A stretch of 64,000 nucleotides of DNA from Naegleria gruberi. Lineage: Eukaryota. Positions 17,410 to 62,765 of this stretch are shown here, piece by piece. Each line of letters opens with the position of its first letter. Positions within the stretch are counted from its first letter, which is position 1. Where the stretch lies: NCBI GenBank assembly GCA_000004985.1, contig GG738870.1; one strand, written 5' to 3'. The position numbers were made by a program, and so were the translations under genes. The notes below the pieces were generated by a model. The model searched no databases. It was given only the letters and a program-made list of their open reading frames with translations, and had not been told where the DNA came from.

Positions 17410-18495
17410 ATGTCATCAATTATTATTGCAGGTCTCGGAATGAGATCAGTCATCAAAGTTGAAGGTCCAAACGTTTCTCTTCAAACTCTTTTAAAGGATT
17501 TTTGCGAAAAGAATAAAATCAATCCCGAACAATATGGTTTATTACATAAAAAGAAGGATCTTGATCTATCACTGCGTATGTATTTGTTTTTAACTCATCA
17601 TTAAATAATTTAATTTAAATAATGATAGCATTCCGTTTGAGTGGAGTTTCCAACAATGCAACAATAGAAGTAATCAAGAAAGCAACATCATCAACTGTAA
17701 AATCAGCAGCAACTTTGGGACTTCAATTACCAGATGGTCAAAGACTGAAATCAATGTATCCTATTGATATTTCATTGTGGATTGCTTTAAAGAGATTTGA
17801 AAAGAAGGAAAATGTTAATCTCACTCTTGTTGAAGATAAATCAGGCAAATATAGCATTCCTTCACTGATCTATATGAATCAAGAATTTAAAACTTTGGAA
17901 GATTTAAAGAAGACTAAATTATCTGATATTGGTTTGAGAGATAATTCAACAGCCTTGTTACGTTTAAATTTTGTTTCAACAGATAAAACAATTGAAGAAC
18001 TTAGGGATGAAATTGAGGAAACCGATGATTTTGTACCAAAGAAGAAAGTTAAAATTGAGATACACAAGTCACACAACAACAAACAGAGGAACTCCAAGTG
18101 ATATTTTGATGGTGGATGATTTTTCGCCNNNNNNNNNNNNNNNNNNNNNNNNNNNNNNNNNNNNNNNNNNNNNNNNNNATCAAGAGACACCAATTTACAT
18201 GTACATTGCACCACCAATCAAAAGATTTGATGACCTATCTCAGACTTTGAAAGATGCAAATTTAATTCCAGCTTCAATTATCAATGTAGGATTAGATAGA
18301 AAGAATCCAAAGAGTGAATCATTTGAATCTCCAAAATTGAAAACAGATCTTTTGTCACAAGTCACAGATATTGAACTAGTTAGTGTTCCAAAGAATGAAA
18401 ATGTTCCAACTCCAACCCCAACCACAACTAAAAGTGCTAAGAGTGAAAAGAATGTAAAGAACCTTCTCTCCAAATTAACAGGAAAGAGACATTAA
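17410..18495 (+). CDS. ASPSCR1: TUG/ASPSCR1-type UBX-domain protein (tandem N-terminal UBL domains, C-terminal UBX), interrupted by an assembly gap
   Basis: Exon 1 is 17410..17575 (VIKVEGPNVSLQTLLKDFCEKNKINPEQYGL...DLSL), aligning to TUG UBL1. A 53-nt intron (GTATGT...TAG) leads to exon 2 from 17629 (PFRLSGVSNNATIEV, then LQLPDGQRLKS, the UBL2 region). After the N-run the frame becomes +1 and encodes the UBX C-terminus (ETPIYMYIAPPIKRFDDLSQTLKDANLIPASIINVG), ending with a stop at 18495. The join across 18100..18180 cannot be resolved. Confidence 0.7.
18129..18178. other. Assembly gap (50 N)
   Basis: This is a run of N inside the TUG-like gene. The missing part of the UBX domain and the frame change across the gap imply that the true gap is larger or hides an intron. 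Confidence 0.95.
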
Positions 18496-28245: not shown

Positions 28246-30062
28246 ATTATGTGTATCGGTGCCATTCGTTGTCTGATTCAATCCTGAATCCATCACCGAG
28301 TAAATTTGAGATAAATGATGAAACCTATTGTGGATCATTTTTTTTGTGTTTGTCGTTGAGAAGATTCTGTTGGTTTGTGGAGTGAAATGGAAATTGGCGT
28401 GTTTTTTGTAATATTCCAAAAGAATCCACAATGTGTGGCAAAAACAATAAGGAGTCCTTATACTTCTAATCTCATTGGAAGAGGATAACAACAAGCAGTT
28501 TGTGCACGTCTATGCTGTTGAAGCAGAATCGATTTCTAGTACAGCTTTGCTTTAAGTGAGCCGGAACAGAGAGTCACATCATCACGGCTAACAATTTTGG
28601 ACCCTTTTGCATTTTCATCATCATTTTAGATTAAAATTCCATCCTTATTATTAAAGGGAAATTAATGTTCGTGTTGTATGTTGCAAGCGCAAATCCAAAG
28701 GCATCAAAATTTGCTAAGGAAATCAAACCATCATAATTATGTTCTTAGTGAGTTGGAATTGAAAATGTCATGAGATATAATTCCTTATTGTTTTTAATTT
28801 GCATTCATAACCTTGGGAGTGATGATTTTGTGATCATTGGTATGAGCCTTATCCAGAGATTTGCCACTACTGTGCAATATGGATCACTCGCAAATTTCGT
28901 CCGCCAAGCGATTTGACTAATTTGGGTATGATTCCCGGTTTACTTTTGTTCGTCATTATAAAACATCTTTGAACCAACAAAATCAATGTCTTTTTACTCT
29001 CCAAAAAAATTCTACAATCAGAATACATCTTTAAAAGTGAAGATTCTAGTGTCTATCTTCTCACTGTTCTGTAGAGTATTCATATCATCATCATTAGCTT
29101 CAAGGAAGTTATTGTCCTAATAGTTCTCTTTAATAGAACCATTTAGTTAGTACTTGGGAAAAAGCCTTTAGAAAATATTTTGCATATTGGACACGAAGAA
29201 GTAATTGCTATTATTATTCTGATATTTTCATCATTTACTGATTAAAACAACAATTGCTAGAGTCTAGCTGAAACTATTAGTAGTAGTAACAGAGGAAAAC
29301 ACCACTCATCATCCAATAGTTCTACCACCCTAAAAGTAAAAGATAGCACTCATCAAAGTCTTCCAAAAGAGTATTGCTGCTATTGGTCCATAATACTTTT
29401 CTAATTGTAAGTATTTTAAATCTAATGAATTGATTGAATTTGTTTTTCTTGCGAACACAACCATCCTTTGAATGATCTATACTTGGATATCGATATATAC
29501 CAAACCAAACAACTCAACTGCAATATTTGGAACAACAATTTCAACATACAATGCTAATATCACGATGACTATCATAAATTACATCATCATCGCGTTGTTG
29601 TTATTATTGATAATCATCTATTAATTGTTAAACATCATCAACATGTCCCTCCGTTAAATAATGCCACGAAATGGTTTTCGTTTTGTGTCTTTATCAGGAT
29701 TAATTTGGAAAAGAACACAAAAAAAAAGAATCACAAACGCTCATTATTAACACTCCCAAAACAGCAAGAACAAGCACTATCGTGAACAACAGTTGACGTG
29801 AAGTTGAAATTGCCTCTTATCAGATATATTGGCTACCATCATCAAATACCAATTTTTATTCTTGTTGGAATTTTACTTATCAACAATATTGTGTATTTTA
29901 ATAGCGTTCTACTTTGTACTATTTACATTCTTGTTTGTTGTAACATTTACTATCATCAAACAAGCAGATTAATTTATATTAATAATTTTGCAAGCACTTG
30001 TGGCTGAAACTAATACTTCTGTCTAGTACAGTTTTGAACGATCGTTCTATATTTTGAAACAA

Positions 30063-32879
30063 ATGCATCACCCTCTACCTCCTCTTCACTCTGCGACCTC
30101 CTATTTACAACAACATGGTGGTCATCATCAGGCGCCACCATCTCCAAGTACACCATCCTCCTATCATCATCCCCAACATGGCTATTATAACAGCAACAGC
30201 AGTAGTAACAATTATCAGAGTGCATATCATCATTCTCCACACCATCATCACTCTTCTGCTGTTAATAGCTCAATGAATGGAGGTTCATCTTCGGTCATTT
30301 ATCATTCCTCTTCATCTTCGCTCTATGGATCAGATTTGGTTTCAGGTGCATCTAGCAGCAATAACAATGCAGCATATCACCATTCTCCACACCATCTCTC
30401 ACACCACCAATCAACTCCAACTTCTCACCATTCCCATTACCATCAAAACTCGTATACCAACAATAACTATCATAATGCAACCACTACCAGTTCACAGCCA
30501 TCCTACAATTATGGCAATACCCAAGACCATTCATACAATTATCAAACAGGCAATAACTATTCATCTTATAATAATACTAGTGTACCAATATCTAACAGTA
30601 ACAATGTTCAAACTCCTACTAGGAGAACAACCTATGAAGAAAATACTCCTGTTACAGTGATATCTTCAGATGAAGAAGACTCACAATATAAAACAATGAA
30701 AACTAGTACTAGTACACCTAATCTATCAAAATCAACACACCACTATGGTTTACAATCACCAAATTTTCAATCTACACCACCTAGTACTAATTATGCACAC
30801 GATTTAAATTCTCCGTCATCATCTGCACATCAACAGCAGCAGTATCAAACTACCTATCCATCTAGTAACAATACATCCTCTTCATATTATCAACATTCAG
30901 GAGGAGGAAATACAGGTGGACCACCAGGTTCGTTGGAAGATAAGTTTTTGTCGATGAGGTCATCTATCATGGTAATACCAAATTCTTCTAGAAGATCGCC
31001 TTCACCTCCACTACCTTCACCAAGATTGGCTAATGAACATCCATCAACACCATCTTCTTCTGTTGCTAATGCAACAACACCTTCCTCTTATACCCAACCT
31101 TTGGCTACCTCCACACCACCATCAACGTATGCAGAACCATCTAAACCTGCATTTAGTGAACCTCTCAAAACAAATTCAAGGAAAGCACTGGATGAAATGA
31201 TGATGAGGTTACAGAGGGAAAAGGAATCTCTTCAGCAGTTCAGAACAACATCAGATTATAGCTATCCTTCCAGTTACCCTTCCACAACTGCTACAACCTA
31301 TAACGCACCTCCTACATATTCACATGATTCATATAATTATACCAATTCATCAACATATCCATCTCCTCACTATTCCAGTTACGCTTCCAAGTACGATGAG
31401 AGGTACAGAGGTAATTCATATTATCAAGATGAGTATAATACTCCAACACCTCCACATAGTTCACATTCTTATCACTCTCCATATGTTTCTGATCCATATT
31501 ATAGAAATCCTAAATATCCTCCAATGTACGCACAAAGTAGTGAAACCATCTCAGATGATGCTCATAATGTGAGGTCAACATCTCCTACTAATCACATAAA
31601 TGGAGCTAGTGATAAGAAGAAACATCATGTACCACCTCCAAACAATACTAGTAGTGGCAACAGGAAAAAACCACCAACAGTTACAAAGAAACCTAAACAC
31701 AAAATTCCTCCACCTCCAAGTTCAACTGCAAATGTTCCTCTACCAACCCCAAATTCCAATACACCAACAGGTTCTGATAAAAAAATCAAGCTGCCACCAA
31801 AACCAAAAAGAAAAGATTCAGAACCTCTAGATAACAATGAGAAAAGTCCAAAGACTAATTTGAACCTTAGAGTTAGAACAAGCAAACAAAAGAAAAGACA
31901 GCAAGATGCTGTTAGAATGTTGAAACAGGACGATAGTGACAATGAGATTATTGAAATGGAAGATGAAAAACAAGACACATACCAACCAAAATCCACTAAA
32001 AGTGATGACGATAAATCTAAGGATGTAGAACTTGACGAAAAAGAAAATGAGATTGGTGACAACTTTGTTTTTTCACGTTCCTCCATGCTTTTACTTTCTG
32101 ATGCAGCTGATATGACAACCAAATGTACCGACTATATCAATTATGAACTTGAGAAGAAGGGATTGTCTATTGAGTTAACATCTGAAGAGCAAGAAATTAT
32201 TGATCTAGCAGTGTATAACATTGTTACTGAATCCAAAAAACCAAACTTTGTCAAAACTCCAGTTGCCTCAACCAGAAAACCGCACAAAAAATTCCTTAAA
32301 TTTTCTGCAGACAATATTAACTCATCAATAACTGTCAATGATTCAGGAGAGTCAATCAAAAAAGGTTTATTGAAGAAAGGACCTGGACTTGATGTTTATG
32401 AAATCGTTTGTGCTGCTAAACTTGACAAAATTAATGAGGATGATATCAAGAAAGAATGCGAAGGCAATCACATGCTTGGCGAAGTAGAATATAGTGACAG
32501 TGAAGACGAACCAAAGGGTGTTAATTTGAGATCTGATAATACTGGCCTTAAATCTATTTTGGGTTTAATTGAAAATGGTGCAGCATCAACTCTAAAATCT
32601 AATGAATCTCTATTCAGTGCTAACATTGAAAAGGTTTTGGAAATGTATTCCTTAAAGAGGAAATCTATTACAAAAGACGTCAAGCTTTTTGAAAAACTTA
32701 AACCTGCAAACTTGTACACCACAACTGGTGAACCAAGAGTTGAGCCATCACCAAAAAAGAAATCTTCACCAAAACGATCAGCTCCAGAACCTAAGAAAAA
32801 GGAAGATGATCAAAAATCTAAAAAGAGAAAATTTGATGTGTTAAAGAAATATAACACCAGAAATGGAAGTAAAGATTAA
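30063..32879 (+). CDS. Low-complexity His/Ser/Asn/Tyr/Pro-rich protein with a Lys-rich, probably nuclear C-terminal region
   Basis: This is a single 2.8-kb ORF (the track starts it at 30054 with TTG; the first ATG is 30063). About 600 residues are compositionally biased (HHSPHH repeats, poly-S/N), followed by a more complex roughly 300-aa C-terminus with KKRK-type basic clusters. I assign no family. Confidence 0.5.
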   Translation: MHHPLPPLHSATSYLQQHGGHHQAPPSPSTPSSYHHPQHGYYNSNSSSNNYQSAYHHSPHHHHSSAVNSSMNGGSSSVIYHSSSSSLYGSDLVSGASSSNNNAAYHHSPHHLSHHQSTPTSHHSHYHQNSYTNNNYHNATTTSSQPSYNYGNTQDHSYNYQTGNNYSSYNNTSVPISNSNNVQTPTRRTTYEENTPVTVISSDEEDSQYKTMKTSTSTPNLSKSTHHYGLQSPNFQSTPPSTNYAHDLNSPSSSAHQQQQYQTTYPSSNNTSSSYYQHSGGGNTGGPPGSLEDKFLSMRSSIMVIPNSSRRSPSPPLPSPRLANEHPSTPSSSVANATTPSSYTQPLATSTPPSTYAEPSKPAFSEPLKTNSRKALDEMMMRLQREKESLQQFRTTSDYSYPSSYPSTTATTYNAPPTYSHDSYNYTNSSTYPSPHYSSYASKYDERYRGNSYYQDEYNTPTPPHSSHSYHSPYVSDPYYRNPKYPPMYAQSSETISDDAHNVRSTSPTNHINGASDKKKHHVPPPNNTSSGNRKKPPTVTKKPKHKIPPPPSSTANVPLPTPNSNTPTGSDKKIKLPPKPKRKDSEPLDNNEKSPKTNLNLRVRTSKQKKRQQDAVRMLKQDDSDNEIIEMEDEKQDTYQPKSTKSDDDKSKDVELDEKENEIGDNFVFSRSSMLLLSDAADMTTKCTDYINYELEKKGLSIELTSEEQEIIDLAVYNIVTESKKPNFVKTPVASTRKPHKKFLKFSADNINSSITVNDSGESIKKGLLKKGPGLDVYEIVCAAKLDKINEDDIKKECEGNHMLGEVEYSDSEDEPKGVNLRSDNTGLKSILGLIENGAASTLKSNESLFSANIEKVLEMYSLKRKSITKDVKLFEKLKPANLYTTTGEPRVEPSPKKKSSPKRSAPEPKKKEDDQKSKKRKFDVLKKYNTRNGSKD

Positions 32880-36580: not shown

Positions 36581-36651
36581 AGGGAGATAGTTCAGTGGTA
36601 GAACATGGGATTGTGGTTCCTAAGATCAGGGTTCGATTCCCTGTCTTCCTA
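36581..36651 (+). tRNA. tRNA-His (anticodon GTG)
   Basis: The sequence folds as a cloverleaf: acceptor AGGGAGA/TCTTCCT, D arm GTTC/GAAC, anticodon stem TGGGA/TCCTA with loop TTGTGGT (GTG at 34-36), T arm CAGGG-TTCGATT-CCCTG, and discriminator A. There is no genomically encoded G-1 (A at -1). A T5 run starts 5 nt downstream. Confidence 0.9.
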
Positions 36652-36655
36652 CACC

Positions 36656-41407: not shown

Positions 41408-41478
41408 GTAGGAAGACAGGGAATCGAACCCTGATCTTAGGAACCACAATCCCATGTTCTACCACTGAACTATCTCCC
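41408..41478 (-). tRNA. tRNA-His (anticodon GTG), inverted identical copy
   Basis: This is the exact reverse complement of 36581..36651, with all 71 positions identical. The -1 position is again A, and a T6 run follows on the minus strand at 41399..41404. Confidence 0.9.
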
Positions 41479-41640
41479 TTCATGTTATAGAGAATCCAAG
41501 CCAAGCATTGATGATAATAAAATAATGATTAAAAATAGATTCGAAAAAAATTATTCATACAAGACGAAGATCACATACAAAAAATTACCGTCATCAAGAT
41601 AATATTTAGGGCTGAATAATTATTAACTTAAATTTTAACA

Positions 41641-46786: not shown

Positions 46787-49332
46787 TTAATTCTTTCGTT
46801 TATAGAAGTAGAGGTAGCCCATATCGAAAGGTGTGTTTTCACTTTGTAAAACTTTGCTATCATTAAACAAAACCCATCTCTTTTCACCATTTCCAACATC
46901 CTTCTTGAGATGGCAAACATAGTGACCACATGAAGTATTTGAACCCATATGACTAATGAAACCAACAAGTTCATACTTTCCACTTCCATCCAAATACTCT
47001 TCTTCTTTCTTTTCAGCTGGTTTTTCATTAGAAGCTTCATTAAGATAACTGTCCATATCATCCATATGACTGAAGAGCCATTCAGCAGCTCTTTCAATAT
47101 TGTTTTGAGTTTGCTTTAAAGCAACAACAGCATGAGTGGAAGGGAAACCAAGATTAGCTAGTGATTCAATGGCATCAGCAGAAGGAGCATTTCCTGATGA
47201 GCTCTTTTCTTGTTTAGCTTCAGGAAGTGGATTATCAATTTCAGGATCATCACAATGCTCAAATACCCATTCCATAGCCTCATTGACACCCTTATTGTTG
47301 GATTTCCAAGCACCTCTCTTAGCTCTATTTTCTGGAATTCCCATTTCTACCAAAGATTGAACGATTTGCATATCAACAAAAATGGATTCTGTCTTCTTTT
47401 CATCACTTGGAAGTTCTTGTTCATTTGGTTTAAGTCCAGTTCCTCTGAGATGAGTAATATCAATCTCTTCAGCATCAGTAATAAATACATCCAATTTCTT
47501 TGGAACCCATCCATCTAAAATAAACTTTCTTACTTGAACAGCCAAATATTGTGGGAAAGTTGCAAGACTAGTTTGTTTCAAGCCAATAGTATTTCTTCCA
47601 AGGGCAGAGCTATAGAAATGATCAACAGGTTCTGTCTCAGCAAAGGCTTCAATACACTTAGACATTGGAATCATTGGTCTAATTTGTTGTTTCTTTTCAG
47701 TACTTGTACTCAAAGGCTTGCTGTTTATATTCTCAGCCAATTTGAGTTCTTTTTCTATTCTTTCTCTTTCCTTCTCTTGTTTACAGAACTCTTCATATTC
47801 TGCCTTATTGGTTGCTTCAGAAAGTGGAACTGGGAGTGAAATCAAATTATCCTTTCTGTAAGTATATTTAACCTTAGATGTTTCTGAGCATTCAATTCTT
47901 TCTTCCACATTGTAATTGAAAATACTATTTACAGAGTCTGTACAGTTAATTCTCTTGTCTTCTCTTTCGATTAATTGGAGTAAGTGTTGGTAAAATTCTA
48001 CAGCATCTTGTTGTCTCATAGTGCTGAACTCTGGATGGCCCTTTCCAACAACATTCTTGAATGATCTTGGTGGAATACCTTCTTGGAATGAATCGACGTG
48101 CTCTTCTGACTTGGAATAATCTCCAGAAAGTAATCCATTAGCGAGTTTTGCCATTTGAAGAGAGAAAGTATCCAATGAACTAGATCCTGTATAACAAGAC
48201 AATTCCTTATCGTGATATCTTTCTTGAACTTCTGGGAATGAGAAAAGAGTTTGCATGACACTAGCCAAATAGCAAGAATTACCAATGTTCTTCAAACCAG
48301 TAAAACCTGGCCCATACATTGGTTGCAAATGCTTATCAGATTCTTGAATTCTAGTAAAATCAAAGTTCAAATTTTGGTCCAATTCCATTTCAGCCATAGT
48401 TTTAGTTGTTTTCTTCATTTCTCTGATATTAATTCCAAAATATTCCAAATGTTCAACAAGCTTGGAATCCTTAACCATCTTATCTTCAGCATATGAATAT
48501 ACGTCAGCCTTTGGTTCTCCGTTATCATCCAATTGAATAGTTCCCAATTTGACACAAACAGGGAATCCAGTCTTTTGATAATGTTCAACAGCATGATTAT
48601 TACCACCAGTACCATCCCAGAATTTTCTACCACATCCAATATGACCGTCAGAAAGATTCAACCAAAGATTATCTGTGATATCACACTCAGCACACTTCCA
48701 TCCATGAGCTGGGACTTTAATATTTCCAATTTGTTTAAGCTCCATAGTATGTTTAGATTCAGTTAACTCTTCACCTTCCCATTTGAGAACTTCTTGTTTA
48801 CGTTCTGCAGATTGGTTTTCCAAAATACCTTTAATTGAAAGTTTAACTTTCTCAGGTAAATCATTATTTGGTAATGGTATTACAACATTATTTGGTTCTA
48901 ATAATACAAGTGACAACAATTCATCATAAAGTTTTTCGTCATTTTCTTCCTCTTCTTTGATTTGGAATCCTCCTTCAACACCAATAGCCATTTTGGTTGG
49001 TTGATCTTCAGATTTTTCTTCAATAGGCTTTTCCTTCTTGATCTTTTTAATATTCAAGAATACAGTATTACCAGTTAATTGATGATGTCTTCTTGTGTAC
49101 TTTGGAGAGAAAGCCAAGAATGTATTCAAACAAACATTGATTCCTCCTTCCGATTTCTAATGATCAAACCAATAAAAGTTACTTTTATACACAAGTTTAA
49201 AAACAAATATACTTACTGGTGAATCAAAAGAAAGACAACATTCTTCCTTATGAATTGGAGTATGACTAGTTGGAATATTGATCCTGCTAAAATCAAACTT
49301 TAAAGAAGAAACATCAACGTGGGATTGAGACA
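46787..49332 (-). CDS. USP5: Ubiquitin carboxyl-terminal hydrolase 5/Ubp14 (isopeptidase T): ZnF-UBP, USP catalytic domain, two UBA domains; 2 exons
   Basis: Exon 1 (49216..49332) reads MSQSHVDVSS...KEECCLSFDSP and ends on a GTAAGT donor. A 60-nt intron with a TAG acceptor gives exon 2 (46787..49155). The protein is colinear with human USP5: the ZnF-UBP motif HGWKCAECDITDNLWLNLSDGHIGCGRKFWDGTGGNNHAVEHY, the Cys box GLKNIGNSCYLASVMQ, two UBA domains and the His box GHYVCHLKK. Confidence 0.9.
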
Positions 49333-53591: not shown

Positions 53592-54254
53592 TTAAAAGAA
53601 ATCATCCAAATCTTTAGATTCTTCAACTTCGTCACCACCATCTCCGAAAAAGTCATCATTATAGTTGCTATGGGCTTTCTTCTTATTATTACTGGAGAAG
53701 AGTGAATCATACGATTTGGCTTCAGCTTCCTTCTTTCTTCTTTCTAATTCTTCCTTTTCCTTCTTTGCTCTTTCTTTTGATTCACGTTTTTGCATTTCTC
53801 TGAAATTCTTGTCTCTTTGCATCTTTTCCTTTTCAAAATCTACTTGTTTTTCAACTTGAGTCTTGTTTAATCTGTTACAGATTTCCTTATTCTTTTGAAT
53901 GACAACGTGACGAACAGCCTTTCTGTCAAAGAATCCAACTTCACCAGTGTCCATGTCACCTGTTTTTTTAAGATTTGAAGCCATTGTATAAACTACTTTG
54001 ACTTGTGGTTCCTTTTTACCTTGAATTGAATTGTATTTTGTAAGTTGAGACAAGTCTTCAATAACTTCCTTCGGAATATCGTTGATTGTCTGTCCTGTAT
54101 GTAAACGTAAATAAACGTGAGCAGAACTGAATCCGTCAACGTGGAACCAGACATCTTCTGGGAATGAATACTTGATGAGATCTTCATTTTCAAACTTGTC
54201 TCTACCCATGTAAACTACATAGGAAGGATCAATACAGGTAAAGTAAAAGACCAT
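53592..54254 (-). CDS. CCDC25: CCDC25/Jlp2-family protein (NFACT-R_1/DUF814 domain plus charged coiled-coil tail)
   Basis: This is a single ORF with its ATG at 54254. The N-terminus MVFYFTCIDPSYVVYMGRDKFENEDLIKYSFPEDVWFHVDGFSSAHVYLRL is the conserved CCDC25 domain. Confidence 0.85.
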   Translation of the reverse strand: MVFYFTCIDPSYVVYMGRDKFENEDLIKYSFPEDVWFHVDGFSSAHVYLRLHTGQTINDIPKEVIEDLSQLTKYNSIQGKKEPQVKVVYTMASNLKKTGDMDTGEVGFFDRKAVRHVVIQKNKEICNRLNKTQVEKQVDFEKEKMQRDKNFREMQKRESKERAKKEKEELERRKKEAEAKSYDSLFSSNNKKKAHSNYNDDFFGDGGDEVEESKDLDDFF

Positions 54255-54302: not shown

Positions 54303-55970
54303 TTAATGTTTATTTTCTAATTTTTGTTCCAAAGCTTGAATTCTTTCTAAACAAAATTCAATCAATTGGTCTTGTCTTTGAATGGTTTCTTCCAAGTTTT
54401 CAACTTTCTTATTTAAAATTTTGATAATTTCAGAGTTGACAGCTGTGGAATTCTCAACATTAATTGTTTGATCCAAATGTTTTCTTTCAATTGAGTGAAT
54501 AATATCTTCATCTTTAGCTAAATCTATTGGTGTTTTACCTTGAGCATTTTTCAATTGAATATTTGCACCAGCGTCAAGTAAAGCAGTTGTAATTTTCTTC
54601 TTGAAATCGAGTTCTTCATCTGTCGTTGCTGGTAGAACTGCAATATGAAGAGCAGAGTTGCCTTCTTTATCAACTGAGTTTACAAATTCAGGAAACATTT
54701 TGACAATGAAATAAACAACTGATTCTCTCATATTTTCCACAGCAACATGTAGAGGTTGTCTATTCTTATTATCAACATTCTTTTCATCAATATTAAGGGT
54801 AAACGGAGGATTTAACAACACTTTCAATAATTCTATCTGACCTCCAGCTGCAGCCCAATAAACACAAAATGATTTCTGAATATTAATTCCCTTTGATTGG
54901 AAAAAAGAAACCATTTCCAAGTCTCCCAGATATGATGCAAGCGCTATAACATTCATGTTAACCTTTCCAAATTTCTTATGTTTGAATTTTCTGTTCATAT
55001 CAGCATTCTTGTTGATTAAGAAAAGAATCATTTCCTTTTGCTTATTCATGACAGCCTCACATAATGGGGTCCAGTTCTGATAATGAGTGGAGAAAAAACA
55101 AGCATCAATGTAAGCTCCTTTTTGCAACAGATAATTTACAAGTACAGATGAACCGTGGCGAACAGCAAGGTGAAGGGAAGTCTTTATATTTGTTACTGAA
55201 ATCAAAGAAACCAAAATACTTACTTCATGTTCACTCAATGGTTGTAAAATATCCACACCTAACATGTTCAATAATTTTAGATAATCCAAATTACTATTAA
55301 TGGCACATTTTATGACACAATTAAGGATCGTTTCTTTAAATTCTTTTGCAACAATCCAAGCATCAAAATTATCTGCCTTCTCAATGGCATTAGCAACAAA
55401 GTATTCACTAATATAACTATCGTACAAAATATTAATACAATCATAAAGATTAGTGTGACAGACCATGTAGTGAAAAGGAGCTGTAATCATGTTATCGTTA
55501 ATGAACAATGAATAAAACATACTCAGTCCATTTGAATCTTTAAGCTTCAAAAACTCATCCAAAAATTTCAATTCTTTCATCTTCTCAAACACAAAGCTCC
55601 CGTTAGAAAAATCAAGGTCATTTGAACCTTTATGTTTGAAACCATATTGAATGGCCAAGTGAAGACAATTTCTATTCTCCAAACAAAGATGAGGTCCTTT
55701 TAATTGACTTGCATTGGAAGTTGTAAATAACAGTTTTAGTCTGGAAACGGAACCTTCTTTCAATGAAAACACAAACTCTTTCAATACATCCGATTCAAAA
55801 GTTTTTGATTTTATATCTTCCATTATGCTTGCATTCCTCTTTCTTCCTAATTCCTTTTCACTCTCGTCTTTGACATGAAGACCTTCATTCATCTTCATGA
55901 TTGTATTTTTCCTTAATACACTTTGCCTCCTTGAAGGAGAAATAGGAAGCTGAGGTAATGGCTTGCTCAT
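54303..55970 (-). CDS. Ankyrin-repeat protein with a C-terminal coiled coil
   Basis: This is a single ORF with its ATG at 55970. It has at least six ANK repeats (for example TSLHLAVRHGSSVLVNYLLQKGAYIDA and RQPLHVAVENMRESVVYFIV) and a helical tail. Confidence 0.75.
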   Translation of the reverse strand: MSKPLPQLPISPSRRQSVLRKNTIMKMNEGLHVKDESEKELGRKRNASIMEDIKSKTFESDVLKEFVFSLKEGSVSRLKLLFTTSNASQLKGPHLCLENRNCLHLAIQYGFKHKGSNDLDFSNGSFVFEKMKELKFLDEFLKLKDSNGLSMFYSLFINDNMITAPFHYMVCHTNLYDCINILYDSYISEYFVANAIEKADNFDAWIVAKEFKETILNCVIKCAINSNLDYLKLLNMLGVDILQPLSEHEVSILVSLISVTNIKTSLHLAVRHGSSVLVNYLLQKGAYIDACFFSTHYQNWTPLCEAVMNKQKEMILFLINKNADMNRKFKHKKFGKVNMNVIALASYLGDLEMVSFFQSKGINIQKSFCVYWAAAGGQIELLKVLLNPPFTLNIDEKNVDNKNRQPLHVAVENMRESVVYFIVKMFPEFVNSVDKEGNSALHIAVLPATTDEELDFKKKITTALLDAGANIQLKNAQGKTPIDLAKDEDIIHSIERKHLDQTINVENSTAVNSEIIKILNKKVENLEETIQRQDQLIEFCLERIQALEQKLENKH

Positions 55971-55987
55971 TTTTTTAATAAGACACT

Positions 55988-56164
55988 ATGCTACTGGGAT
56001 GTGTTATCATTACAGCAATATTAATAAAAATGAATAGAGGATGTATGGATGTTAACAGTTTAGTAGTTGGAGGAGTACAGGATGTAAAAGACAATGTGGT
56101 CGGAGGATTCCACACTTTGAATAAGGCTACATCAATTTTGAAGAGAACACTTATCACCTGTTGA
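55988..56164 (+). CDS. Stand-alone truncated paralog of the Gly/Val-rich 11-mer module (58 aa), possibly a pseudogene
   Basis: There is an ATG-initiated 58-codon ORF reading MLLGCVIITAILIKMNRGCMDVNSLVVGGVQDVKDNVVGGFHTLNKATSILKRTLITC*. About 85% of nucleotides match 60342..60545 of the Exo84-like gene's first exon, but it has one 33-bp repeat unit instead of three and ends at a TGA where the other copy continues. It is below the 60-aa track threshold. The minus ORF 55975..56172 is its antisense. Confidence 0.45.
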   Translation: MLLGCVIITAILIKMNRGCMDVNSLVVGGVQDVKDNVVGGFHTLNKATSILKRTLITC

Positions 56165-56584: not shown

Positions 56585-57868
56585 ATGAAAGTTTCAAATT
56601 TATTATTCATTTGTCTATTCCTATTCACTTTTGCTTACAAGTTGACTGTTGCCTCTAGCACTTCCAACATGCTACAACCAGTCAATTTATTTCAGAAGAG
56701 AACATCTCAAGCAGTGTGCACATGTCCTAGATGTCCAGACAAAATTAACATCAACAATTTCTTGTTCTCAACTGAGGTGAATTGTCCCACCAAGTGTCCC
56801 ACAGGCTATTACGTCAATGGAATGGATCTCTTGATTTCACCATTTAATGACTACCATACCTACATTATTGAAACTACATCCACTGACACTTCAAACAAAA
56901 TTAATGACTTGTCAAAAGATCAAACCAGATACAATCTTGGAGATTGTTTCAGTGCCTCTACTTCCTTAAATCTTGATACCACTGATTACACTACCAAGAT
57001 TACATGTAAGAATGCCATTACTCAATGCTCAGTTCAAGTGAAAAATGTTTGTTTTTGCTCCAAATCCCCTTCAAAATTGGTTATTATTGCTCCTTCTCTT
57101 GTTGTGACTGGATCTAAATACACACCTGAAGTAAGAATTGTTGACAATGATGGAAATATAGTTCCAAGAAACTATCTCATTGAATTCATTTCACCTGGTC
57201 AATCCTATACTTCTATGGCATCAAATGGTATCATGAAAGTTAATGAACTTATTGCCCCAAGCTCTGGTACTGTTACATTAAGAGCTTCTATCAGTTCTCT
57301 TTCAGGTTCTGCTCCTTCATTGACTTCTGCTGAGTTTACTGTCACTGTCACTCAATCCTTATTCACATGTTATGGTGCTTCACCTTCCAACAGTTCTGTT
57401 TGTAGTGGTAAAGGAACATGTACTGCTCAAGATGTTTGCTCATGTTTCACAGGATACAGTGGTAGTAAATGTGAAACATTCTCCTCAACCACTCAAGTTT
57501 CCAGCATTAAACTCTCAGTTCCCTCCACTGTGAATAGTGGTTCTCAATTTACTGCAACTGTTTCAATGTTGGATTCAAGTGGAAGTACCATGAAATCAGG
57601 TTCAGGAACTATCACTTTGGATATTGTTGGTGCATCTTCTGATGTTACAATGGTTGGTGATAAGTCCAAAGTGGCAGGTGAAGGTGTTGCTTCATTCTCT
57701 GTTCAATTGTCAACATTGACATCAACTTCGATCTCTCTAAAGGCGAACTATCAAACACTTTCAGATACCAAATCAGTTAATGTGGATATATCCAGGACAT
57801 CTCAATGTGCTGCCATTTGGAGTTATCTTTTCACAATAACCTTTTTTGTAATTTTATTTATTATCTAA
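56585..57868 (+). CDS. Secreted Ser/Thr-rich cell-surface protein with an EGF-like Cys module and a C-terminal hydrophobic (GPI-type) tail
   Basis: This is a single ORF with a signal peptide (MKVSNLLFICLFLFTFAYKL). It has an EGF-like Cys pattern (CSGKGTCTAQDVCSCFTGYSGSKCE) and an N-terminal Cys-rich region (CTCPRCPDK...CPTKCPTGYY). Much of the rest is Ser/Thr-rich and likely O-glycosylated, and the last ~22 residues (AAIWSYLFTITFFVILFII) look like a GPI-anchor signal. Confidence 0.7.
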   Translation: MKVSNLLFICLFLFTFAYKLTVASSTSNMLQPVNLFQKRTSQAVCTCPRCPDKININNFLFSTEVNCPTKCPTGYYVNGMDLLISPFNDYHTYIIETTSTDTSNKINDLSKDQTRYNLGDCFSASTSLNLDTTDYTTKITCKNAITQCSVQVKNVCFCSKSPSKLVIIAPSLVVTGSKYTPEVRIVDNDGNIVPRNYLIEFISPGQSYTSMASNGIMKVNELIAPSSGTVTLRASISSLSGSAPSLTSAEFTVTVTQSLFTCYGASPSNSSVCSGKGTCTAQDVCSCFTGYSGSKCETFSSTTQVSSIKLSVPSTVNSGSQFTATVSMLDSSGSTMKSGSGTITLDIVGASSDVTMVGDKSKVAGEGVASFSVQLSTLTSTSISLKANYQTLSDTKSVNVDISRTSQCAAIWSYLFTITFFVILFII

Positions 57869-57922
57869 TAATAATAATATTGCATTAAATAAATTTAATA
57901 TTACAAAATTTAATTATTATAA

Positions 57923-58281
57923 ATGGATCAAGACTTCATTGACTCAAGTTATTTCTCAAATGATCTGACAAAGTCTAATAACATCAAGTCATGTATTAGA
58001 ATAGTGTTCAAGTAGGTAATACCAGTAGTATTTTACGTGAATTTTATCATGAGCTTCCAAAGAAACATTCTAAGGGAGGTCAATCTCTTGAAAGATTTGC
58101 TAGAAATAGAGAAATTGCCAAGAATGAATATCTAAAGATTATTGCAGAGAAGGCAAATTCTTTATTCGTATCGCCAACTTTGAATGCTCCAACTGTAGAT
58201 GCTATTATTCTTGCTGGATGTGCTGAATTGAAGAATGAATTACTTTCTCTCAAATCTGATTGTTTGGTAATAGTAAAATAG
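57923..58281 (+). pseudogene. Eukaryotic release factor eRF1 remnant (NIKS-region fragment plus middle-domain fragment), frame-broken and internally deleted
   Basis: A stop-free frame over 58000..58281 encodes NSVQVGNTSSILREFYHELPKKHSKGGQSLERFARNREIAKNEYLKIIAEKANSLFVSPTLNAPTVDAIILAGCAELKNELLSLKSDCLVIVK*. This aligns residue by residue with eRF1 domain 2 ([56 protein letters not shown]...[26 protein letters not shown]). A different frame over 57923..58015 encodes MDQDFIDSSYFSNDLTKSNNIKSCIRIVFK*, which resembles the NIKS loop region of domain 1. No canonical splice joins the two frames, and about 100 aa of eRF1 lying between them, plus the N- and C-terminal parts, are absent. Confidence 0.5.
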
Positions 58282-58302
58282 TAAAAAGTAACTAAGAGTG
58301 AT

Positions 58303-59398
58303 TTAGGTCAATTTGAACATGCCTTGAATTGCCTTGGCAGAGTAAGCTTCTTCCAAACTCTTCTTTTCTTCATCGGTTAATTGAATTTCCAATGCTTGCA
58401 CATTGAGTTCAATATTTACAGCTTTAGTGGCGCCAACAATTGGACAAGCAACACCTGGCTTGGAAAGCAACCAAGCAAGTGCAATTTGAGCAGGTGGTAC
58501 ATTTCTCTTCTTTGCAATTTCTGAAACTCTTCTCAATGTTTCTTTATCACCCTCTGTTAAATTTTCCTTAAATATATTTTGGAAATAATCAGAGGTAGCT
58601 CTCTTGGAATCAATTGCTTGTTCAGCATTGACAAATTCATGAGCACGAGCGAGCATTCCATTGGAAAGAGGTCCCCATGGAGTGAGAGAAACATGTTGGT
58701 CAACACATAATGGATTCATTTCTCTTTCTTCTTCTCTATAGATGAGATTGTGGAGATTTTGCATGGAAATGAATTTGGTCAATCCCTTCTTCTCAGCATA
58801 GTGTTGAGCTTTAGCAAATTGCCAAGCAAACATTGTGGAAGCACCAATGTATCTGACCTTTCCAGACTTGACTAAATCATGGAGTGTTTCCATAGTTTCT
58901 TCAATTGGAGTATTTTCATCCCAACGATGGATAATGTACAAATCAATGTCTATTCAATCAATCATTATTAATCAAATGAAATATTTCAGTAAACTTACAA
59001 TCGAGACCTAATCTTTGCAATGAATCTTCAACTGCATGCATAATGTGCTTTCTGGAGAGACCAAAAGTGTTTGGTTTCAACTTGCTAAAGTCCATTACCA
59101 TAGATTGTTCACCACTTCTGTCCACTGGAGCACAAACTTTGGTAGCCACAACAATTTCCTCTCTTGAAATGTTGAATTTCTTAATGAAATTTCCTAAAAT
59201 TCTTTCACTTTCTCCATTACTATAAACATTGGCAGTATCGAAAAAGTTAATTCCCAAATCCCATGCCTTCTTCAAAATGATCATTGATTCCTCTTCATTC
59301 AATACCCAAGGCATCCACTTGGAAGATCCAAAACTCATACAACCCAAACAAAGTTGAGAAACCTTCAAACCACTATTACCCAAATTGACGTATTTCAT
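58303..59398 (-). CDS. Aldo-keto reductase; 2 exons
   Basis: Exon 1 (58999..59398, ATG 59398) ends ...LQRLGLD at phase 1 on a GTAAGT donor. A 49-nt intron with a TAG acceptor gives exon 2 (58303..58949), which starts YIDLYIIHRWD and reconstitutes the AKR hallmark LGLDYIDLY. The family is conserved throughout the protein (GASTMFAWQFAKA, PWGPLSNG). Confidence 0.9.
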
Positions 59399-59511: not shown

Positions 59512-59613
59512 AAAATTTGTGCTCATATTTTCGCGAGCAGATTAATGTTTTGATGGTTTTGGATGGATATGATGATTTAAAATTGTGCTCACATTTTCAC
59601 GAGCAGATTAATG
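59512..59613 (+). repeat. Two roughly 35-bp direct repeats (AAAATT(T)GTGCTCAyATTTTCrCGAGCAGATTAATG) spaced 66 bp
   Basis: Copy A (59512..59547) and copy B (59578..59613) differ by two substitutions and one T indel. Each contains a small palindromic core (CTCGCGAG in A, CTCGTGAG in B). They lie in the roughly 360-bp region between the aldo-keto reductase ATG (minus, 59398) and tRNA-Met (59761). The track ORF 59517..59789 merely spans them. Confidence 0.7.
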
Positions 59614-59760: not shown

Positions 59761-59833
59761 GGGGTCATGGCGCAGTCGGTAGCGCGTAGGTCTCATAATC
59801 CTAAGGTCGTGAGTTCGATCCTCACTGACCCCA
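59761..59833 (+). tRNA. Elongator tRNA-Met (anticodon CAT)
   Basis: The sequence GGGGTCATGGCGCAGTCGGTAGCGCGTAGGTCTCATAATCCTAAGGTCGTGAGTTCGATCCTCACTGACCCCA is near-identical in its D arm, anticodon arm and T arm to metazoan or fungal elongator tRNA-Met, with anticodon loop CTCATAA. A T5 run lies at 59836..59840. Confidence 0.9.
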
Positions 59834-60248: not shown

Positions 60249-62765
60249 ATGAAAGTTGGTGCCCTGTTACAAGGTGCTCAGTCGTCTTTTAACAGACATT
60301 ATCAATGGCTTGTTCTGTTTTTTAACGATAAAACATCTATGCTTCTTGGACGTGTTATTATTACAGCAACATTAATAAAAATGAATAGAGGATTTATAAC
60401 GGAAGGTGTACAGGATGTTAAAGGTTTAGTGGTCGGTGGTGTTCAGGATGTTAAAGGCTTAGTAGTTGGAGGAGTACAGGATGTAAAGGACAAGGTGGTT
60501 GGAGGATTCCACACTTTGAATAAGGCTACATCAATATTGAGGAGAAAAATTATTAGTGATGTTGGAAATGCTAAGGAACTAAATAAGAAGGTGATCAGTT
60601 ATTTTACAGGAAAAGAGAGTAGGTTGATGAAGAATATTATTTAATAATTAATAATTATAAATAATATTTTAAATAGAGGCTCTTGAACATCCTTCAACAA
60701 TTAATTTTGCATCAGATGAATTTGATCCTGAGGATTGTAGGTTATCATCAATGTTTAATAATTCTGATTTTTAGATACTGATACCTTATTCACAAAATCC
60801 GATTACAAACAAATTGAAAGCAATTGGCTTGCAGGATTATCTATTGAACAAACAAAAGCAAAGGAAAAATTACAAGAATTAGTTTCAGATAATTATATAC
60901 AATTCATTGATGCTTCAAAAGAGGTTTCAAGTTTTATGGATGTTGATTTGATTGAAATTGGTAATCTTGTAACTTCTATGAAAAATGTTATTTCAGACAT
61001 TGACTCAGTTGATTTGACTTTGGATTATAGATGTTTGTACCCAACTTTTAAAAGTGTTGATGTTGAGGCTTTAAGAGAAGTTGAATATACAATGCTACCA
61101 GAATTGGAAATGATAATTTCTCAAAGACTATTTCACAAAGCAGCAGAATTGGTTGAATTAATAGATAAAAAACTAGTGTTGGAAGATGATATCAAAATGG
61201 AAAAAGACTACAGAGCGTCACTTCAACAATTGAAAAAGAAATTCTACCAAAAAAGAATTGAACTCAGTGAATCTGTTTCTGAGTCGGTCAAAAGTGGCCT
61301 TTCCAGTAATAAGGATGTTAAATTATTGGAAAAAATTTCAGGAACAGAGATTGCTATTACAACTTATCTAAAAGGAAAAAAGGTTAGAATTAAGAATATT
61401 CTTACAAAGATAGAATGCAGAGGAAATGTTGAGGACTACACAAAAACAGCCTCCAAACATGTTTTCAAGATGATTGAAGTAGTTTGTGCGGAGTTTAGAG
61501 AGTTATTTACTGATGATACAAATACCTCTTTTTTTATTCAGTGGTCATTTGAGGTGTTAGAAAAATTAGTCTCCACTGTCAAAGTTCAAATATTAGGTCA
61601 ACAATGTTTTGAAACCACATCTAACAGTATCAATGTTATCATTAAGAAGGCTCAACAGTTAGAAAAGATGGGTATCACAGTATCTTTCTACATACATAAA
61701 CTGTTGTTACCTGATGTTGAGAAAACAATGAGACAACGATGTATTGAATTAAGAGAGGAGATATTTAGAATAGCTTGTTCTGAATTATGGAATTACAAAA
61801 ATGTTCCCTGCGATTTATTTGCTGTTGCCCTTCCAGATGTTGTAAAGCAATTGAAGGTGGGGCAAAGTTGCCTTGTATTTGTGAATAGTATTCGTACTTT
61901 TATTATTAATTGTAGTTTAATAGTTTCCTCATATGTAAGTAATCACATACCAATATCTTACACCGTCAAGTCTTTCAATATTGTAAATATGTGTGTCACA
62001 GAACTCTTTGAGACTACCTTATCAAAATATTATGAGATTGGTTTGTCAAAAACCATTAGTGAGAAACAATTCTTTGTAATTTTATCAAGTTCAAGGTTTA
62101 TCTTACAAGGAATGTTGGAGGAGGTTTCAGAGATGTTAAAGGTTTGTTCTTGTAAACATATTTTCTCTTTAACATTTGATTAGTTATTATTTGATAAGAA
62201 TTTACCAGTAGAAATTACAATTCTTAAATCTAAAATATTTGGTTTTGATTCAAGATTGTTAGAGAAATATTGTGAGAACAAAGCTTTCAATTTAGTAGAT
62301 GAAAAAATAGGATGGAATCACAGCTACATTGCTCAAGAAATATCATCTGTAACGAGTGTCAGCAAATTCTTTGCTCAGGTCATCTCATACTTTGATAAAT
62401 TATCGAATCATATAGCTTCATCTTTTGACAAGGATTCTATCCCAATAATGAGGCTTTTCATTAAATATACGGTAGAATATCTTACTGACAAGAGTAATGC
62501 AATGACAAGCATGATTGAGGATACAAAAGAATCAGCAAAGAAACATAAGGTTAATCAGATTATTCTTGATCTGAGCTACTTTAAACAACAATTATCAAGC
62601 AGAGATTTTATTTCAGAGGAAGTAAGTATTGTTTTAATCATAATTATTTACCCATGATAGGATGAGGATACGATTATATCATATATTGATTTCATAAGAG
62701 ATTTAAACCATGGATCAGAGAGTGTGCTCTCTAATCGAGCAATTGAAGAGATACTTAATAAATAA
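60249..62765 (+). CDS. Exo84/Vps51-family vesicle-tethering-complex subunit with an unusual Gly/Val-rich 11-mer-repeat N-terminal exon; 5 exons
   Basis: The proposed exons are 60249..60618, 60677..60740, 60821..62141, 62184..62621 and 62661..62765 (stop TAA 62763-62765). The track ORF starts at TTG 60243; in-frame ATGs at 60249 and 60342 are alternative starts. Exon 1 ends at phase 1 on a GTAGGT donor, with a 58-nt intron and TAG acceptor, and exon 2 has a matching phase 1. Introns of 80 nt (GT...AAG), 42 nt (GTTTGT...TAG) and 39 nt (GTAAGT...TAG) follow. Exon 2 encodes ...NFASDEFDPEDC, the Vps51/Dor1-type FDPE motif, and exon 3 encodes NWLAGLSIEQTKAKEKLQELVSDNYIQFIDASKEV followed by ISQRLFHKAAELVELIDKKL, which resembles Exo84's IAQRDFEGAVDLLDKLN. 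The rest is an alpha-helical bundle. Confidence 0.55.
60402..60500 (+). repeat. Coding 33-bp tandem repeat, 3 units (GVQDVKGLVVG 11-mers)
   Basis: The units are 60402..60434, 60435..60467 and 60468..60500, with about 80% pairwise identity. They encode EGVQDVKGLVV / GGVQDVKGLVV / GGVQDVKDKVV, and the paralog at 55988..56164 has a single unit. Confidence 0.85.

Follow-up and report, generated by a model that had tools for sequence, protein, structure and literature searches.

In bacteria, the release factor 2 (RF2) gene prfB carries the sequence CUU UGA C, which serves RF2 autoregulation (PMC3521657). An analogous arrangement is found in the eRF1 genes R726 of Mimivirus and mg280 of Megavirus, where UGA-C readthrough is combined with +1 frameshifting (site CUU UAG C or CUU UAA C; Jeudy et al. 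2012, PMC3521657). According to the same study, no internal stops occur in the remaining eukaryotic class-I factors, an Acanthamoeba paralogue among them. Viral eRF1 recoding has been extended to klosneuviruses and others, and neither mini-domain nor acidic tail is present in these viral factors (Zinoviev et al. 2019, PMC6582330); Naegleria is a klosneuvirus host, as cited in PMC11702301. In the literature searched, which covered subscription journals thinly so that a prior description is possible, +1 recoding of eRF1 in cellular eukaryotes is unreported. Here we describe a relic of an eRF1 gene in a 64,000-nucleotide (nt) stretch of Naegleria gruberi DNA (hereafter the window). The segment 57911..58267 is very probably a dead partial copy, i.e. 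a pseudogene fragment, of a frameshift-type eRF1 gene of Naegleria, and its intact relatives carry what is apparently a hitherto undescribed, conserved RF2-like frameshift cassette in amoebal eRF1 genes.

Compared with eRF1 (ETF1/Sup45; Pfam eRF1_1, eRF1_2 and eRF1_3), the remnant shares the catalytic GGQ motif and a trace of the NIKS loop, but keeps only ~120 of roughly 440–490 residues, spread over three frames and without YxCxxxF and the C-terminal (C) domain. With unprocessed partial-duplicate pseudogenes it has in common the truncation of both ends, internal deletions, frameshifts, the lack of a usable start, an intergenic position between intact genes and a sister copy that decays by non-triplet indels. 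It departs from them in that part of its apparent frame disruption is the +1 shift site of the functional parent and no lesion. Significant homology to a functional gene elsewhere thus coincides with disabling lesions, which is what defines a pseudogene. Judged from its sequence, the remnant does nothing, or would at most ride passively in the 3′ regions of its convergent neighbours.

The best preserved part is the middle (M) domain. A stop-free stretch of 94 codons (58000..58281, plus strand), which the preliminary description had aligned to the M domain of eRF1, was recovered as such; by a rough estimate of our own, a run of this length is expected by chance at ~7e-4 at 33% guanine plus cytosine (GC). 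Residues 5–82 of this frame match Pfam PF03464 (eRF1_2) with E = 2.5e-17 and 63.9 bits (gathering cutoff 27.1) over profile positions 19–93 of 133. Among eRF1 structures in the PDB the fragment matched 8ip8 with E = 3e-15 and human 1dt9 with E = 2.9e-12, the latter covering residues 162–237. A tblastn search of the window with human eRF1 gave E = 7e-14 at 45% identity. Combining Pfam, PDB, tblastn and pairwise alignment, we delimit the M-domain fragment to 84 amino acids (aa), GNTSS...LKSDCL, at 58015..58266 (plus strand). The motif KGGQS at 58072..58086 had been taken for a position other than the catalytic one. This has to be corrected, as the stretch LPKKHSKGGQS pairs with the human stretch that holds the catalytic GGQ, and the codons GGA GGT CAA (58075..58083, plus strand) align to human G183-G184-Q185. 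Methionine is absent from the 94-codon frame, and no in-frame start codon serves it. Within the 64-kb window, tblastn revealed neither a second eRF1-like sequence nor an intact eRF1, and a search with the full-length parent found nothing of the C domain (eRF3 binding, GILRY-type motif, acidic tail); no Rfam RNA family was detected in the remnant. An intact eRF1 obtained by unusual splicing was also considered and rejected, since only 58015..58266 and short scraps of the N-terminal (N) domain match and an aldo-keto reductase (AKR) gene abuts the 3′ end.

The closest relatives of the fragment were identified by a profile search over 1.84 billion representatives. Two proteins scored far above the rest, Willaertia magna ABK040_015924 and Naegleria lovaniensis C9374_008678 (376 aa), the latter named “Eukaryotic peptide chain release factor subunit 1” in UniRef. 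Word-indexed protein searches proved lossy (the remnant as query missed the N. lovaniensis protein), and their negatives carry no conclusion. The remnant is 75% identical to the N. lovaniensis protein over 84 aa (residues 211–294, E = 8.6e-33) and 67% identical to the W. magna sequence, but only 45% identical to human eRF1. Similar values were obtained for a USP5-type protein encoded in the window (46787..49000, minus strand), with 76% identity to Naegleria fowleri and 68% to W. magna; on these values the window stems from a Naegleria species distinct from N. fowleri. Across their whole length, members of the parent family are ~40% identical to human eRF1. The difference between 75% and 45% therefore points to a divergent Naegleria/Willaertia eRF1 family, and not to a canonical-type eRF1, as the parent. 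The earlier view of a decayed partial duplicate of an eRF1-type gene thus stands, while its assumption of a canonical-type eRF1 as parent does not.

Intact relatives were found in N. lovaniensis, W. magna and environmental contigs. The N. lovaniensis locus (PYSW02000035.1, 9667-11131) lies on a 466-kb contig adjoining ordinary cellular genes, and the W. magna locus (L022; JBEGDK010000067.1, 5947-7347) on a 170-kb contig with sparser surroundings that include a ribosomal L22 gene. No homologues of the window neighbours occur within ±10 kb of these two intact genes, and the remnant therefore occupies a different locus. W. magna itself harbours a further partial duplicate of 0.86 kb (L003:9911-10763; JBEGDK010000169.1), 97.2% identical to L022:6134-6993. 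This copy, annotated as protein ABK040_013511, begins right after the shift site described below, and an in-frame TGA occupies the position of the conserved Arg in DxRL. The gene has therefore given rise to partial copies on independent occasions in two genera.

All seven distinct intact family genes that were checked on the DNA level show the same peculiarity: a +1 frame break at NUU UAA C after (N/R)IKS. N. lovaniensis and W. magna both read AGU CUU UAA CAG. Among the environmental loci, L004 reads UGU AUU UAA CCG, L045 and L046 (one gene on two contigs) read AGU GUU UAA CAG, L047 reads AGU GUU UAA CCG, L048 reads UCU AUU UAA CAG, and L049 reads CGU GUU UAA CCG. The N-terminal open reading frames (ORFs) run from ATG to UAA without an earlier stop, and the +1 frame continues with NR(Q/K)SV..., without a gap against the canonical NIKS-RV-NRLSV, so that the family shift is placed exactly between V and N of NIKSRV|NR. 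In N. lovaniensis the site is AAC AUC AAG UCG AGU CUU UAA CAG GAA GAG CGU G, and a +1 move at CUU_UAA_C gives NIKS-SL-NRKSVETA..., gapless against human NIKS-RV-NRLSVLGA; the junction peptide predicted across the shift would read ...ASNIKSSLNRKSVETATR. Arithmetically, NUU_UAA_C equals the canonical ...GUU AAC... (V-N) plus one extra U. It is invariant though the family proteins are only 35–47% identical to each other. The +1-frame signature xFNRxSV was present in 11 of the 150 best cluster representatives.

Controls behaved differently from the family in that NIKS and NRxSV stay in one frame. This holds for 14 canonical-type eRF1 contigs (L005-L020 series), which stem from the JGI metagenome scan that also yielded the frame-broken L004, and for 21 eRF1s from giant-virus metagenome-assembled genomes (L023-L043). 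Reinitiation is an unlikely explanation of the break because in N. lovaniensis and W. magna ~30 conserved +1-frame codons lie ahead of the first AUG. An intron at the shift site is likewise unlikely, because one member (P0079) derives from the Trinity transcriptome of the amoebozoan Paradermamoeba levis. Current gene models cope poorly with this site. In N. lovaniensis, an 80-aa eRF1_1 ORF ending in ...TKASNIKSSL* is followed by the 376-aa C9374_008678, which starts from an internal Met, and the W. magna model ABK040_015924 contains invented introns that skip NIKS and GGQ.

Against this background the anatomy of the remnant was mapped on the N. lovaniensis gene by tblastn and pairwise alignment, assisted by a sister copy (contig L001, see below). 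At the 5′ edge of the relic (57911..57962, plus strand), 57930..57962 reads KTSLTQVISQM, corresponding to residues 56–66 of the N. lovaniensis eRF1-like protein; the parental sequence before approximately codon 48, including start codon and GTS loop, is gone. A 7-nt deletion relative to N. lovaniensis at ~57962, where L001 has an in-frame 6-nt gap, precedes the NIKS-bearing piece DLTKSNNIKSCI (57962..57997, plus strand; NIKS at 57980..57991), whose homology to the NIKS region follows from alignments with the N. lovaniensis gene and L001 at both the DNA and the protein level. Positions 57995..57999 (plus strand) hold a vestige of the parental frameshift site, in which TGT ATT is kept and five nucleotides, exactly UAA_C, are deleted after 57997; the early-stop shift site is thus absent from the window copy. 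The post-shift relic of the N domain, (R)NSVQV at 57998..58014 (plus strand), matches NRKSVET of N. lovaniensis and NRLSVLG of human eRF1. At the junction 58014/58015 an internal deletion of 369 nt (123 codons, in N. lovaniensis coordinates) has taken what remained of the N domain, YxCxxxF included, together with the first part of the M domain, in agreement with the missing stretch noticed previously between the NIKS piece and the M-domain piece. The 3′ truncation point falls into 58267..58302: homology to L001 and the parent gene stops at 58267/58268, and the next 35 nt lead into the stop codon of the convergent AKR gene. Nothing is left beyond N. lovaniensis residue ~294 (human ~244), so that the M domain lacks its end and the C domain is missing entirely. 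Instead of a complete in-frame N domain with GTS loop, TASNIKS and YxCxxxF, only KTSLTQVISQM, DLTKSNNIKSCI and NSVQV are left, in three frames. Five lesions are counted in total: the loss of ~47 N-terminal codons, the deletions of 7, 5 and 369 nt, and the 3′ loss. The preliminary description was correct in recognising an internally deleted, frame-broken copy, but its list of lesions was incomplete, lacking the 5′ truncation, the 7-nt deletion and the 3′ truncation at 58267/58268.

The frame offset between the NIKS piece and the downstream sequence combines the parental +1 shift with the effect of the 5-nt deletion. The break is therefore partly an inheritance, and one of the two frame changes in the remnant evidently comes from the parent gene. 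Decay, to which the whole frame difference had been ascribed, accounts for the 5-nt deletion and not for the +1 switch at NUU_UAA_C, which is found in intact parents.

A short ATG-initiated ORF at 57923..58015 (plus strand, 30 codons, product MDQDFIDSSYFSNDLTKSNNIKSCIRIVFK) had been singled out for its resemblance to the NIKS loop. The ORF exists and includes the NIKS-homologous DLTKSNNIKSCI, but its ATG is not the ancestral start: L001 has TTG and N. lovaniensis TGC at this position. Given the unconserved ATG and 13 initial codons outside the ancestral frame, we regard it as a chance ORF. No Pfam match was obtained for the 30-aa product, and the NIKS piece alone gave a non-significant E = 2.2 within the window. 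It had further been stated that no canonical GT...AG intron joins the two frames. Literally, 57993..58015 (23 nt) does so; it was rejected as an intron since it is homologous to parental coding sequence (VFNRKSVET).

Searching with the remnant protein led to a 79-aa ORF on the 541-bp contig L001 of assembly GCA_006365155.1. Contig and window (57878..58267) are 96.7% identical, with 13 substitutions in 390 nt and indels of 1, 5 and 1 nt, and they have in common the AT-rich 5′ flank back to window position 57878 as well as an identical junction between the NIKS piece and GNTSS. The shared junction shows that the internal deletion is real and older than the split of both copies, and the occurrence of the same flank and junction in an independent assembly shows that the remnant is not an assembly artefact. 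Past 58267 the copies diverge, L001 going on with the eRF1 sequence DYRLRT*IVTVVDVACGG, which includes an in-frame TGA. Relative to the window, L001 further shows TTG for ATG, NINS for NIKS and, within the GGQ codons, one additional G that causes a frameshift. It retains the shift site as UGU AUU UAA CAG, followed by G. For the M-domain frame we counted 3 synonymous substitutions in 58.3 sites and 5 non-synonymous substitutions in 208.7 sites, giving a ratio of non-synonymous to synonymous rates (dN/dS) of ~0.47. Inclusion of the NIKS piece raises it to ~0.6 (up to 0.62), where the 10 coding substitutions are too few to reject neutrality. The non-triplet indels between the two copies argue for the absence of coding constraint.

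Several alternatives to a copy of the frameshift-type gene have to be weighed. It is very improbable that the remnant is a decayed duplicate of a canonical-type eRF1 in which both frame changes are plain decay. An eRF1-family fragment with disabling lesions is what such a history would leave behind; yet the identity of 75% to the N. lovaniensis family gene versus 45% to human eRF1 concerns the most conserved part of the protein, and the offset between NIKS and the downstream frame recurs in every intact family member at the conserved NUU_UAA_C.

Slimmer still is the chance that the remnant stems from integrated giant-virus DNA with a viral eRF1 and not from a host gene. This notion draws on the RF2-like +1 frameshift of Mimiviridae eRF1 genes (PMC3521657, PMC6582330), on the klosneuvirus hosted by Naegleria (cited in PMC11702301), and on the virus-like contig L049 with its GUU_UAA_C site. 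However, the identities of 75% to N. lovaniensis and 67% to W. magna track the ordinary orthologue divergence seen for USP5 (76% to N. fowleri and 68% to W. magna), the intact genes sit amid ordinary cellular genes on contigs of 170–466 kb, no viral genes flank the remnant, and family-specific patterns matched nothing in IMG/VR. Moreover, the family is without upstream UGA readthrough and keeps an acidic C-terminal tail, unlike the published mimivirus eRF1s. When IMG/VR was scanned with broad patterns, 21 canonical-like eRF1s of giant viruses came up without a break, besides a single divergent locus that shifts by +1 at another site. The latter, a mimivirus-like locus (L044:2975-3650; IMG/VR UViG_3300045431_000245), encodes a divergent viral eRF1 with the break UGC UCC UAG CCU ~35 codons past NIKS, so that its shift at UCC UAG C lies ~35 codons further downstream than the family site. 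As for L049 (2190-3363; JGI Ga0599142_0003061), its eRF1 has CGU GUU UAA CCG and no upstream stop, and the contig appears virus-like by its dense small ORFan genes on both strands (17.6 kb, 42–45% GC). As it carries a Naegleria-type site, virus–host exchange is a possibility.

Least probable of all, and already ranked behind a decayed duplicate in the preliminary description as a neofunctionalised mini-ORF, is a functional mini-gene in which the 23-nt intron at 57993..58015 or a frameshift would yield a ~111-aa protein with NIKS and GGQ, e.g. a ribosome-binding modulator: the GT..AG join preserves the frame arithmetically, the 94 codons are free of stops despite a low chance expectation of ~7e-4 and GGQ is intact, but the sole verified nearby intron has 49 nt with GTAAGT, the supposed intron is homologous to the parental coding sequence VFNRKSVET, the ATG is unconserved with the first 13 codons off the ancestral frame, L001 is disrupted by non-triplet indels and an in-frame TGA and has its GGQ broken, and with most of both domains absent a stable fold would be unlikely.

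A dead copy of the frameshift-type gene thus remains the preferred explanation, and it would have originated by partial duplication to a new locus, with deletions afterwards. Several points weigh against it. The 94-codon frame is still open, and a dN/dS of ~0.5 does not by itself prove neutrality. An intact frameshift-type parent copy is assumed to exist in the remnant's own genome. In-situ decay of a dispensable paralogue after a rearrangement is a possible alternative to duplication. Two extra frame disturbances around GGQ are present in the W. magna gene (L022), which may be assembly errors or real decay. Finally, that the parent family employs a programmed +1 ribosomal frameshift is what we infer from comparative sequence alone. 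With these points considered, it is still probable, albeit clearly less certain than the pseudogene assignment, that the remnant is the fossil of a cellular eRF1 class, represented in Naegleria, Willaertia, at least one amoebozoan (Paradermamoeba) and many uncultured protists, that needs a programmed +1 shift at NUU_UAA_C between NIKS-x-(L/I/V) and NRxSV. In a neighbour-joining tree of 134 eRF1 sequences, a crude one, the frameshift-type genes did not form one clean clade.

In the parent gene, termination at the weak UAA-C context would compete with a +1 event, either by re-pairing of the P-site NUU to UUU or by out-of-frame decoding of AAC. When termination is slow or eRF1 activity low, the ribosome would move to U_AAC and more full-length factor would be made, and efficient termination or high eRF1 activity would leave only an N-terminal peptide of 58–80 aa. 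The shift could thus act as a sensor of termination efficiency, following the same logic as bacterial prfB and Mimivirus R726. The family resembles prfB in the early in-frame stop with NUU before and C after it and the remainder in the +1 frame, N. lovaniensis and W. magna reading CUU UAA C. It differs from prfB in being a eukaryotic/archaeal-type factor with UAA instead of UGA, in that no Shine-Dalgarno stimulator is expected, and in the P-site codon, which is CUU, AUU or GUU; the window copy is without the site. Mimiviridae eRF1s, in which the +1 shift takes place at CUU UAG C or CUU UAA C, resemble the family as eRF1-type factors with an ORF interrupted in this manner. In contrast to these, the Naegleria-type family has no upstream stop, its site stop is always UAA, it keeps the acidic ...DLxDF(Y/I/L) tail, and it occurs in nuclear genomes and one cellular transcriptome. 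Of 33 gene ends in the window, 2 use UAA-C, a sample too small to tell whether this context is avoided.

The window is AT-rich eukaryotic DNA (~33% GC) with the standard genetic code and mostly long single-exon genes, in which short introns are occasional. The remnant indeed lies between two intact genes, as the preliminary description had it. Upstream, 56585..57868 (plus strand) encodes an intact 427-aa signal-peptide protein with an EGF-like domain. The convergent neighbour is the intact two-exon AKR gene (58303..59398, minus strand), with an intron of 49 nt (58950..58998, minus strand; GTAAGT..TAG). Its spliced product matches Pfam Aldo_ket_red with E = 5.9e-76 over profile positions 2–290 of 291. 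A direct repeat at 55957-56154 and 60304-60553 (71% identity overall by blastn with gaps) flanks a 4.2-kb block comprising the EGF-protein gene, the eRF1 remnant, the AKR gene and a tRNA-Met gene. The ungapped cores of the repeat span 61–108 nt at ~90% identity and contain 33-nt tandem units (2 and 3 copies) that read VVGGVQDVK in one frame; no further copies were found elsewhere in the window. The intergenic sequence that separates the AKR start from tRNA-Met(CAT) (59761-59833) contains two occurrences, 66 nt apart (59513-59547 and 59579-59613), of the 35-nt motif AAATTTGTGCTCATATTTTCGCGAGCAGATTAATG, which includes the palindrome TGCTC..GAGCA and may be a promoter element.

Further afield, two tRNA-His(GTG) genes lie in opposite orientation ~4.8 kb apart (36581-36652, plus strand; 41408-41479, minus strand). 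The segment 30001-32000 combines a strong negative GC skew of -0.35 with raised GC and overlies a 941-aa low-complexity ORF rich in Ser, Pro, His and Asn (30054-32879). A run of N at ~18130-18190, translated as X within the ORF 17971-18495, is a scaffold gap, and the window therefore stems from a gapped draft assembly. The 220-aa NFACT-R protein of the window (53592-54254) is amino-acid-identical on a 2.2-kb metagenome contig (ENA ERZ929261) of project PRJEB11402, which also holds a different frameshift-type eRF1 (contig L046, ERZ929215).

In summary, the remnant itself is ordinary, and the interesting lead is its parent gene. As a young pseudogene, the remnant could help to place a small rearrangement in time within the lineage of the Naegleria gruberi group. 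As for the parent family, genome annotation at present fails at NUU_UAA_C in N. lovaniensis and W. magna, where an eRF1-type gene ends up split or mis-spliced, and its putative recoding bears on the origin of the mimivirus eRF1 recoding. If the programmed frameshift is true, “shifty stop” autoregulation of release factors arose in, or was transferred to, cellular eukaryotes and would not be limited to bacteria and giant viruses. The family would then provide a eukaryotic counterpart of the bacterial RF2 autoregulatory loop, hitherto described only for Mimiviridae eRF1, and a directly testable eukaryotic sensor of termination efficiency. Should the gene be the sole eRF1 of Heterolobosea, their termination capacity would be set by frameshift feedback; should it be a paralogue, it would represent a back-up factor that is induced when termination becomes limiting, possibly exchanged with giant viruses.

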